DNA from: a virus
Lineage: Duplodnaviria; Heunggongvirae; Uroviricota; Caudoviricetes
Length of the DNA stretch: 10,354 nt
IMG/VR virus record: IMGVR_UViG_2563366849_000004
Location: 1 to 10,354 of that record
Strand: one strand, 5' to 3'
Program-made: the position numbers and the translations under genes
The notes under the pieces: model-generated
The model's input: the letters and a program-made list of their open reading frames with translations, nothing else
Database searches by the model: none
Told to the model about the DNA's origin: nothing
Shown here: piece after piece, positions 7,020 to 8,347 of the stretch
Position numbering within the stretch: the stretch's first letter is position 1
Layout: every line of letters starts with the position of its first letter

Positions 7020-7316
7020 ATGCCAGCGCCTCTGTATGGTGCGGATGACGCGCGCCGCTGTTCCGGCAATTCCGTATCGGAGGTGCTGGAAAATATCAAG
7101 AATAATCTCGACGCGTTTCTTGCTCTGCCACCAGAAACAAAAGCAGAACGGAAGTACCGACGCGATATACAACTCGCAGAAAAACAGGAAAAATACCGAA
7201 TAAACGAAACATCAATCCGACCATTCCGCAAAGCCATATATACCCACTTCCCTGAATATATCGACCCGCGCCTGCGTAATTACCGCTCACGCTATGGCGC
7301 TATCAGTAATGACTGA
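7020..7316 (+). CDS. Hypothetical early protein (98 aa)
   Basis: ATG preceded by SD AAGGA with an 8-nt spacer. Part of a co-directional, tightly packed operon. No recognisable domain. Confidence 0.6.
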
Positions 7317-7326
7317 GGAATTTACC

Positions 7327-7491
7327 ATGAGAGGACTTGCATACAATCCCGGCATTCTTCCGGCAGAAATGATTATTCGCCAACGCGTAAAGCCAATGCC
7401 ATCGAGAGAGGAATTGCTTAAGAGAAATTCTTTTCCATCAGTGAATCAAAACAAATATCTGAATGCGATGTTGCGGAGTGGGAAGAAATGA
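7327..7491 (+). CDS. Hypothetical small protein (54 aa)
   Basis: ATG at 7327 preceded by SD GAGGAA with a 7-nt spacer. Stop overlaps the next gene's ATG (ATGA). The track start at 7294 lacks an SD. Confidence 0.5.
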
Positions 7492-8033
7492 AACAAATGT
7501 CACTAATTGAGATGGATGGTTTTCTGAAAGGTAAATGCATCCCACGAGATTTAAAGGTTAACGAAACAAACGCTGAATATCTGGTGCGTAAATTTGCTGA
7601 AGCGGAGGCCACGATTTCGGAGCTGGCCGAAGACCGACAGAAAGCGATTGAGTCAATTAAGCAGGCTGATTCGGCTGTTAAGTTGGCACACGAGAAGTTT
7701 TCGGCACTGGCGGCGGAGAATGCGGGGCTGAAGTCTGGCGCTATGGACGAAATCAAGGTTATCAACCGTGGAGGGCAGGCATATTGCGTAAAAGATGGAG
7801 TGCAAGTTAATCCCATGTATGCAAGAGGGTGGAATGACTATCGCGCAAAGTTTCTGCAATCAGACACCCCAGCCACCGATGCTTTCCTGGCTGAAATTGA
7901 ACGCAAAGCAATCCGCAAGTTCATTAACAGCATTGAACACATCCTGCGTGACAAGTTGTCACCGTATGACACCGAAGAGATGCTTGAGGCTATGTGTATT
8001 TTTCTGGAAGAACAGGGAGGTGAGCAAAAATGA
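7488..8033 (+). CDS. Hypothetical protein (181 aa), predicted alpha-helical N-terminal half
   Basis: ATGA overlap with the preceding ORF and with the next one. No recognisable motif. Confidence 0.65.
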
Positions 8034-8347
8034 CAATCACAAAACAACGGGTAGAAGAAATCATATCCCGCATTGAAATGTATGGACATGGTGCAGGATA
8101 TACCGCTGACGAGGTTTATGACCTAGCTGTACTGGCGCTGAATTTATCAAATATCGCAAACCTGAAGCGATACGAGCTTGATATGGATGGTTGTGACTCG
8201 TGCGGTCAGGATTGTGGCGCTGACATGACTGAAGATTCTGATGGCAATTATGTCCTGTTTGATGACGTGGTTAAGTTGTTTGAGTTTGATACAACCACTC
8301 AGAAGTTAGAAGGCCCAGCAAAGGAGGCAACCAGTGAGCAAGATTGA
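8030..8347 (+). CDS. Hypothetical acidic protein with a Cys/Asp-rich segment (105 aa)
   Basis: SD GGGAGGTGAG lies 5 nt upstream of the ATG. Contains DMDGCDSCGQDCGAD. Confidence 0.6.
   Translation: MTITKQRVEEIISRIEMYGHGAGYTADEVYDLAVLALNLSNIANLKRYELDMDGCDSCGQDCGADMTEDSDGNYVLFDDVVKLFEFDTTTQKLEGPAKEATSEQD

Follow-up and report, generated by a model that had tools for sequence, protein, structure and literature searches.

The stretch analysed here, hereafter the window, is the 10,354-nucleotide (nt) sequence of the IMG/VR virus record IMGVR_UViG_2563366849_000004 (Caudoviricetes), and our subject is a cassette of four plus-strand open reading frames (ORFs) at positions 7020-8347. ORF1 (7020-7316, 98 amino acids (aa)) is almost certainly abc2, and ORF2 (7327-7491, 54 aa) encodes a DUF2737 peptide. 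ORF3 (7488-8033, 181 aa) encodes a modular coiled-coil protein that very probably belongs to the EaE/Oad2 (YfdS-N) family, and ORF4 (8030-8347, 105 aa) encodes a small acidic protein of PHROG 3126. Ten nucleotides separate ORF1 from ORF2; ATGA stop/start overlaps join ORF2 to ORF3 (7488-7491) and ORF3 to ORF4 (8030-8033), and ORF4 overlaps by 14 nt the GTG start, at 8334, of the Ead/Ea22-like gene that follows. Shine-Dalgarno-like sites precede the starts of ORF1 to ORF4 (AAGGA, GAGGA, GGAG and GGGAGGTGA, in that order). A promoter and terminator scan of 7020-8347 found no promoter-like site and no plus-strand terminator-like site, and Rfam and tRNA scans of the window returned no matches.

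The four ORFs are real genes under purifying selection, because each matches a Pfam or PHROG family over its full length (E ≤ 3e-32) and the pairwise ratios of non-synonymous to synonymous substitution (dN/dS), calculated against six homologous loci, range from 0.09 to 0.56 across all four. An earlier note on this DNA had described four plus-strand ORFs of these lengths with good Shine-Dalgarno sites, ATGA overlaps at 7488 and 8030, an SSB-like gene upstream and an Ead/Ea22-like gene downstream. All of this agrees with the ORF list and the sequence, and the flanking genes match phrog_44 (E = 1.9e-28) and PF13935 (E = 1.6e-34), respectively. Its description of all four genes as unknown and without a recognisable motif does not hold, since ORF1 corresponds to Abc2, a protein of solved structure, and ORF2 to the Pfam family DUF2737 (P22 orf56). 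The segment is partly matched at the DNA level by 460 phage records and by 2247 of the 5426 complete E. coli genomes, and the cassette is a standard, largely catalogued accessory segment of P22-like and lambda-like early operons.

Evidence that ORF1 is Abc2, the P22 anti-RecBCD protein 2, comes from three collections and leaves us close to certain of the assignment. Residues 1-98 match positions 1-97 of the 97-position Pfam model PF11043 (Anti-RecBCD_p2) with E = 2e-41 and 140.5 bits (cut-off 25), the PHROG family phrog_656, named "abc2 anti-RecBCD", is matched with E = 4.8e-49, and residues 1-98 align with the P22 Abc2 chain of PDB 8B1T/8B1U (8b1t_A, E = 2.5e-37). According to the structure paper (eLife 2022, PMC9836394), host PpiB engages Abc2 at P68, and Abc2 leaves the helicase activity of RecBCD unblocked; P68 of ORF1 aligns with the PpiB-site proline, P68, of the P22 protein within a SIRPFRK motif. 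The dN/dS of ORF1 is 0.34-0.49. Abc2 redirects RecBCD through RecC binding, an activity that homology predicts for ORF1. The remote-homology search proposed in the earlier note thus recovered a characterised phage protein for ORF1 and no function for ORF2 or ORF4. The gene order erf - SSB-like - abc2 of the window is that of HK446, HK75 and Sf101.

The central part of ORF1 is diverged (aa 25-66, nt 7092-7217): residues 25-52 are identical at 11 of 28 positions to both P22 and HK446, and the two ends are 84-97% identical. In PDB 8B1T, residues 25-52 of Abc2 are within the part of the protein lying on RecC, and the segment may represent a RecC-interface variant. The variant Abc2 recurs at 93-95% identity in some IMG/VR loci.

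ORF2 is a DUF2737 peptide homologous to P22 orf56, HK97 gp38 and HK446 gp28, as judged from its matches to Pfam PF10930 (DUF2737; residues 1-53 on model positions 1-53 of 53, E = 3.4e-32, 110.5 bits with a cut-off of 25) and phrog_1117 (E = 1.3e-37). Its identity is 77% with P22 orf56 and 94% with HK446 gp28, its isoelectric point (pI) is 11 and its dN/dS is 0.09-0.41. A longer, 65-aa form initiated at an ATG at 7294, within ORF1, is not supported; DUF2737 aligns to residues 1-53 of the 54-aa form, and the homologues are annotated with 54 aa. The gene calls for assembly GCA_000351965.1 skip the 54-aa DUF2737 gene (9840-10004 of our locus L173, equal to window 7327-7491) and those for locus L174 (GCA_043524635.1) include it, a small-ORF annotation gap. 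A sequence search with ORF2 against PDB gave only chance-level matches (E ≥ 0.4), and the sole mention of DUF2737 in a literature search was a genome annotation that gives no function.

The layout around ORF2 is classical, because the P22 map (erf - abc1 - abc2 - orf56 - eaE - ... - xis - int) has the same order of abc2, orf56 and eaE. In order to assess the linkage of ORF2, we examined the 80 IMG/VR loci most similar to it, 77 of which were evaluable. Abc2 lies directly upstream of DUF2737 in 77 of these 77, and an ORF3-type N-module overlaps the DUF2737 stop codon in 76 of 77, an arrangement also found in P22, HK446 and HK75. An additional gene separates abc2 from DUF2737 in HK446, E. coli A35 and PhiR12. 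In locus L174 (7459-12748), an apparently intact lambdoid prophage, DUF2737, ORF3 and an ORF4-position gene follow a RecT/Gp157-type recombination module that has no Abc2; the abc2-DUF2737 link is therefore not absolute. ORF3 of this prophage is 100% identical to that of the window, the ORF4-position gene encodes 105 aa, and a 104-aa protein of no known family is encoded upstream of DUF2737.

ORF3 very probably belongs to the Oad2/EaE family, as indicated by its sequence relationships. It matches phrog_614 (E = 1.1e-58) and no Pfam family, and BLASTP aligns its residues 1-180 with residues 1-175 of HK446 gp27 (Oad2) at 42% identity (E = 3e-40). Alignments of 35 family members and six reference proteins were used to set module boundaries. 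The N-module (aa 1-37, 7488-7598) is near-invariant across the family and identical to Oad2 at 34 of 37 positions. It is followed by a coiled coil (aa 38-84, 7599-7739; 14/47 identical to Oad2) of varying copy number, a hypervariable middle module (aa 85-125, 7740-7862; 6/41), an invariant joint or linker (aa 126-137, 7863-7898; 10/12) and a C-terminal helical hairpin (aa 138-181, 7899-8030; 14/44). BLASTP gave no alignment of the isolated C modules of ORF3 and Oad2; a Smith-Waterman shuffle test did reveal real similarity (z = 10, equalled by 0 of 5000 shuffles). A 10-residue motif within the linker (aa 127-136, 7866-7895) is invariant in otherwise unrelated EaE/Oad2-like proteins, and it resembles a joint at which recombination shuffles modules.

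Most close ORF3 homologues carry the NCBI name "hNH endonuclease", some are called "Phage eae protein", "YfdS family" or "hypothetical". The label, which includes RefSeq annotations, would make ORF3 a homing or otherwise DNA-cutting HNH endonuclease, and a preprint on OLD describes some family members as fusions with an HNH homing nuclease. We reject this identity as extremely improbable. No HNH-family model of Pfam or NCBIfam matches ORF3 at E ≤ 0.1, no precomputed Pfam HNH domain occurs among the ORF3 homologues listed, and the protein contains only two histidines. The AlphaFold2 (AF2) model (mean predicted local distance difference test score (pLDDT) 76.6) is helical (residues 26-94, 109-124, 128-156 and 159-177) apart from one low-confidence hairpin at 99-108, and has no beta-beta-alpha-metal motif. 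Foldseek searches of the model against PDB and BFVD returned nothing below E = 0.8. The same protein is, moreover, called "YfdS family" or "hypothetical" in other records, and the HNH label most likely spread from the fusion proteins.

The PDB sequence search with ORF3 gave chance-level matches only (E ≥ 0.4), among them a putative Gam at residues 104-142 (E = 0.41); a sub-threshold Pfam Mu-Gam match falls on a different region, and both were treated as noise. A toxin-antitoxin reading of ORF3 and ORF4 was dropped, as neither toxin nor antitoxin domains were found and the PADLOC defence models matched no protein of the region.

What is known of the family comes from the same preprint (bioRxiv 10.64898/2026.07.10.737580). 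HK446 gp27 is Oad2, which binds and inhibits the P2 OLD ATPase-TOPRIM tRNase; P2 OLD fires when RecBCD is compromised, and gp33 of HK75 and HK446 triggers it. Oad2 is related to P22 EaE, and some of its relatives are fused to HNH (homing nuclease) or EaD/Ea22 modules (bioRxiv 10.64898/2026.07.10.737580). A literature search on the function of EaE and EaD yielded nothing beyond this work. In HK446 the order is gp33 - erf - gp31 - abc2 - gp29 - DUF2737 - gp27, and gp27 overlaps the DUF2737 stop codon. The HK75 homologue that is reported as inactive against OLD has the N-module and coiled coil of Oad2 and differs from it in both the middle and C modules, so specificity presumably lies in these two. 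Among the variable modules, ORF3 shares with active Oad2 only the type of the C module, and that distantly.

The proposal of the earlier note that the cassette holds host-takeover or anti-defence genes is borne out for ORF1 by the anti-RecBCD protein Abc2, and becomes plausible for ORF3, a full-length Oad2 homologue in the same position. We consider it about an even chance that ORF3 has an anti-defence role of any kind. That it specifically inhibits a P2-type OLD is, judging from its modules, doubtful.

ORF3 and ORF4 might instead be Ea22-like developmental modulators, that is, oligomeric coiled coils, ending in variable acidic domains, that bind a host factor and bias the choice between lysis and lysogeny. 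The short N-region, long coiled coil and variable C-terminal part of ORF3 fit the description of Ea22 (PMC10834534), and both genes occupy a region equivalent to exo-xis. ORF3 also gives partial matches to phrog_368 and phrog_492, which are matched by the adjacent Ead/Ea22 gene as well; one homologue of its residues 32-147 is annotated as ead/Ea22-like, and some Oad2-like relatives carry a precomputed PF13935 match. Neither ORF3 nor ORF4, however, matches PF13935 at E ≤ 0.1. The pair formed by ORF4 and the middle and C modules of ORF3 is kept in virulent Buchananvirus-type siphoviruses, which have no lysogeny decision to make, and the closest experimentally studied relative of ORF3, Oad2, is an anti-defence protein. 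We therefore regard a purely developmental role as unlikely; Ea22-like and anti-defence roles are not mutually exclusive.

ORF4 matches phrog_3126 from end to end (residues 1-105 on profile positions 1-105 of 105, E = 3e-67), a PHROG without assigned function, and no Pfam family. Its dN/dS is 0.10-0.56. All 269 close homologues in a large protein database are named "hypothetical", and a profile search of 1.84 billion cluster representatives returned 115 clusters (50% identity) that resolve the protein into two sub-modules. Residues 1-40 make up an N-terminal helical pair, and residues 41-84 (8150-8281) a Cys/Asp-rich 45-aa mini-domain with the consensus LKRYxLDMxGCDSCGQDCGADMxExxDGxYVLFDDV, in ORF4 CDSCGQDCGADM...YVLFDDV. 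This mini-domain recurs in larger prophage proteins behind other N-modules, including that of the DUF551 gene of the window, and it likewise occurs in fusions with DUF551 or with a dATP/dGTP pyrophosphohydrolase domain. Longer ORF4 homologues run on into a TDAFLAEV... tail, which is the joint motif of ORF3. A zinc finger or ribbon at CDSCGQDC was considered and rejected; among the homologues only C55 and C62 are invariant, position 58 is often occupied by Phe, and the match to zf-FCS (E = 0.075) misses the cut-off. A sequence search of ORF4 against PDB gave chance-level matches only (E ≥ 0.4).

With a pI of 4.08 and 23 Asp plus Glu against 8 Lys plus Arg, ORF4 is small and very acidic, and it is encoded in an early accessory region near an anti-RecBCD gene. 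These properties could indicate a stand-alone DNA mimic with anti-restriction or anti-nuclease activity like Ocr, ArdA or gp5.9, the last of which sets the precedent that small acidic helical proteins can mimic DNA (PMC9836394). Such a function is very unlikely. Searches of Pfam, PHROG, PDB and PADLOC detected no sequence or structural similarity to known mimics, and the core of ORF4 is a mini-domain that also occurs within larger mosaic proteins, unlike dedicated mimics. Acidity is common among the proteins of the ea region (pI 4.9 for the Ead gene and 4.3 for the DUF551 gene), and the AF2 model of ORF4 is too poor to judge charge patterning.

ORF4 is strongly associated with the C module of ORF3. 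In loci anchored on DUF2737, it is adjacent in 12 of the 13 that have the ORF3 type of C module, as compared to a presence in 2 of the 62 that lack it (Fisher p = 4e-11). Among 80 loci anchored on ORF4, an ORF3-type C module ends at the start of ORF4 in 48, and the ORF3 middle module is found in only 17. The association extends to the virulent siphoviruses Sa179lw (Buchananvirus) and Bas80 and to Jersey-like Salmonella phages, in which an ORF3-like gene is directly followed by ORF4. This ORF3-like protein has a different N-terminus, and its middle and C modules are identical to those of ORF3 at 40 of 41 and 39 of 44 positions, respectively; in both loci inspected (Sa179lw and Bas80) the two genes overlap by 4 nt. 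In almost all temperate contexts, the gene after ORF4 is an Ead/Ea22 gene that overlaps it and starts with GTG, at the same offset in most related loci. Block exchange at conserved joints would fit these arrangements, and we nominate the C module and ORF4 as a functional pair. That ORF4 acts together with ORF3 is a tentative possibility, which we would sooner doubt than assume.

The genes upstream of the cassette place it in a recombination module. A homologue of gp33, the reported trigger of P2 OLD in HK446 and HK75, is encoded at 5748-5918 (plus strand, 56 aa, 95% identical to HK446 gp33). An alternative ORF at 5827-5997 overlaps it; the PhiR12_1 record annotates an overlapping 56-aa ORF in the other frame, and Sf101 annotates both. 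The next genes, also on the plus strand, are erf (6008-6613; PF04404 ERF, E = 2.1e-44; phrog_155) and the SSB-like gene (6613-6996), a homologue of HK446 gp31. On the other side of the cassette, the Ead/Ea22-like gene occupies 8334-8885 (plus strand). Further downstream, a 59-aa Lar-like zinc-ribbon ORF at 9517-9696 has a sub-threshold Lar_restr_allev match (E = 7e-5) and is followed by a minus-strand terminator hairpin (9779-9760), and a hydrophobic 71-aa ORF of no known family (9795-10010) lies just before torI.

The window as a whole is a linear cryptic prophage of the CPS-53/KplE1 type, beginning at the start codon of intS and ending at the stop codon of torI. Positions 1-10354 are 100% identical to contig KB733421.1 of GCA_000351965.1 (L173 2514-12867), where 161 nt separate int from the tRNA-Arg(CCU) gene argW upstream, a copy of the 16-nt att core CTGCAGGGGACACCAT is found on each side, and the element is bordered by yfdC at one end and by dsdC-dsdX-dsdA at the other. 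The position of int at base 1 and of xis at the end, and the tailspike abutting early-left genes, could also suggest a circularly permuted or mis-assembled mini-circle; this was ruled out by the CPS-53 layout and the source contig, with intS at attL and torI at attR. The contents are intS, an S24-peptidase-like gene, an acyltransferase, an intact P22-type tailspike and a truncated early-left operon. On the minus strand, a 128-aa S24-peptidase-like (UmuD/LexA-type) ORF by intS (1232-1618) matches positions 8-85 of the 116-position Pfam model and may be truncated or a moron gene, and 1805-5032 encodes the intact O-antigen acyltransferase (345 aa) and the 705-aa tailspike, with a P22-type head-binding domain (E = 3.1e-63) and a beta-helix. 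Homology to early-left operons starts at about 5352, just past the position of an Nmad5-like gene in PhiR12_1, to which 5352-6100 is 98.5% identical; this is the deletion junction with the tailspike side. PL, N, nutL, cIII, the repressor and the replication, lysis and head genes are missing. The terminator scan found two plus-strand hairpins (5491-5508 and 5529-5548) upstream of kil, gp33 and erf, and window 5378-5604 aligns to 6841-6621 of the HK75 locus (L091), whose terminators are annotated at 6669-6690 and 6701-6728.

With PL, N and nutL deleted, the cassette may not be expressed in the present host, and our functional statements rest on the roles of these genes in phages. The cassette genes of the remnant may be silent cargo, and the term "early genes" of the earlier note is correct for their ancestry only, as here they lie in a cryptic prophage that has lost those elements. 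It is a serious possibility, if somewhat short of an even one, that the cassette is inert, being intact only since the deletion is recent, and neither transcribed nor useful to the host. The loss of promoter, antiterminator, repressor, replication, lysis and head functions from the 10.35-kb argW-dsdC remnant, the junction near 5352, the two terminators ahead of the genes and the failure to find a promoter-like plus-strand site all fit this explanation, and the dN/dS values reflect selection across phage lineages rather than in the present host. All eleven plus-strand ORFs of 5748-10354 are nevertheless uninterrupted, the consensus promoter scan was strict and would miss weak or non-sigma-70 promoters, and for K-12 CPS-53 genes, such as the yfdQRST cluster, phenotypes have been reported. 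Inertness in any case concerns activity in the present host and not the identity of the genes.

Taken together, the cassette is probably the distal end of a P22/HK620-type lambdoid early-left recombination and accessory module, preserved intact in a CPS-53/KplE1-type cryptic prophage, with ORF3 a likely inhibitor of a counter-guard kind. In the mechanism that we propose, phages that tamper with RecBCD by means of Abc2 and a gp33-like protein would set off guard systems such as P2 OLD, and counter-guard genes would build up directly downstream of the RecBCD-disturbing genes; the discussion of the preprint also argues for such an accumulation (bioRxiv 10.64898/2026.07.10.737580). ORF3 would most likely bind and inhibit an immune effector directly, as a coiled-coil oligomer, with a target, whether an OLD-family nuclease or another effector, set by its middle and C modules. 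ORF4, translationally coupled to ORF3, would most likely be its partner or a second accessory binding protein, and DUF2737 may be a small regulator or a conserved joint for recombination and translational coupling. A bolder version, which we hold to be rather improbable at present, is that the middle and C modules of ORF3 form with ORF4 a two-protein anti-defence unit whose target is not P2 OLD and which is swapped as a block, at the joint, between temperate P22-like/lambdoid phages and virulent Buchananvirus and Jersey-like siphoviruses. If this were true, members of the EaE/Oad2 family would share a constant scaffold, the N-module and coiled coil, into which interchangeable "warheads" are plugged to counter the different immune nucleases that guard RecBCD.

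Several observations weigh against a counter-guard role for this cassette. The evidence on Oad2 is a single preprint of July 2026, in which the HK75 homologue, 54% identical, does not inhibit OLD (bioRxiv 10.64898/2026.07.10.737580); since a homologue of that similarity is inactive, the 42% identity of ORF3 says nothing firm about its target. The N-module and linker hold most of the similarity between ORF3 and Oad2, and their middle modules are unrelated (6/41 identical, Smith-Waterman z = -1.5). The AF2 model of ORF4 is unreliable (pLDDT 50). The linkage loci are the 80 most similar per search and are not phylogenetically independent, and co-inheritance of ORF4 with the C module could be plain physical linkage between recombination joints. 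As to expression, PL, N and nutL are absent, two terminators precede the genes, and the promoter scan detected no sigma-70-like plus-strand promoter in 4800-10354.

Our analysis corrects the record of the locus, where among four "unknowns" one is Abc2 and one belongs to the P22 orf56 family, and finds no support for the name "hNH endonuclease" that RefSeq widely gives to proteins of the ORF3 type. ORF3 is grouped with the newly reported OLD inhibitor Oad2, in a family whose modules reassort independently, and such a modular family offers a way to seek new anti-defence specificities beside phage RecBCD modifiers. The co-inheritance of ORF4 with the C module, which extends to virulent phages, nominates a testable pair of proteins. 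What is new here is modest: the assignment of ORF3 to the Oad2 family with the dissection of its modules, the rejection of the HNH label, the ORF4/C-module co-inheritance and the recognition of a CPS-53 allele. Nothing in the locus will surprise a specialist on lambdoid phages, because the segment is common and most of its parts are already catalogued.

Comparison with known systems shows how the locus combines familiar parts. ORF1 is 69% identical (67/97) to P22 Abc2 from end to end, with 22 of 24 residues shared at aa 1-24 and 26 of 31 at aa 67-97, and differs from it in the central aa 25-52, where identity drops to 39%. In both P22 and the window abc2 stands in the Rec module downstream of erf; P22 has erf - abc1 - abc2, whereas the window has the SSB-like gene in place of abc1, as do HK446, HK97 and Sf101. 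ORF2 resembles P22 orf56, HK97 gp38 and HK446 gp28 in its equal length, in its slot between abc2 and an EaE-like gene and in its overlap with the start of the latter.

ORF3 occupies the position of HK446 gp27/Oad2, overlapping the DUF2737 stop codon downstream of gp33-erf-SSB-like-abc2, and shares with it the type of N-module, the 10-residue joint and a homologous C module. It differs from Oad2 in its unrelated middle module (aa 85-125) and in a 7-residue insertion in the coiled coil. Its similarity to P22 EaE is confined to the linker and the final part of the coiled coil, and that to K-12 YfdS to the N-module (52% over 64 aa), after which YfdS continues differently; according to the Ea22 paper, YfdS contains a DUF551 motif (PMC10834534). 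Like lambda Ea22 (PF13935), ORF3 is a mosaic of N-region, coiled coil and variable end domain encoded between recombination genes and xis (PMC10834534), yet it falls short of PF13935, the true member of that family being the gene at 8334-8885, next but one.

The prophage itself occupies the same site as K-12 CPS-53/KplE1, from argW to dsdC, and has the same end genes, with 95.5% nucleotide identity in intS and 100% protein identity in TorI. Both elements comprise intS, O-antigen modification genes, a tail gene on the opposite strand and an early-left remnant that extends up to torI. They differ in what lies between: the window carries an intact tailspike, an acyltransferase and the series gp33-erf-abc2-DUF2737-ORF3-ORF4, whereas K-12 carries yfdG to yfdT.

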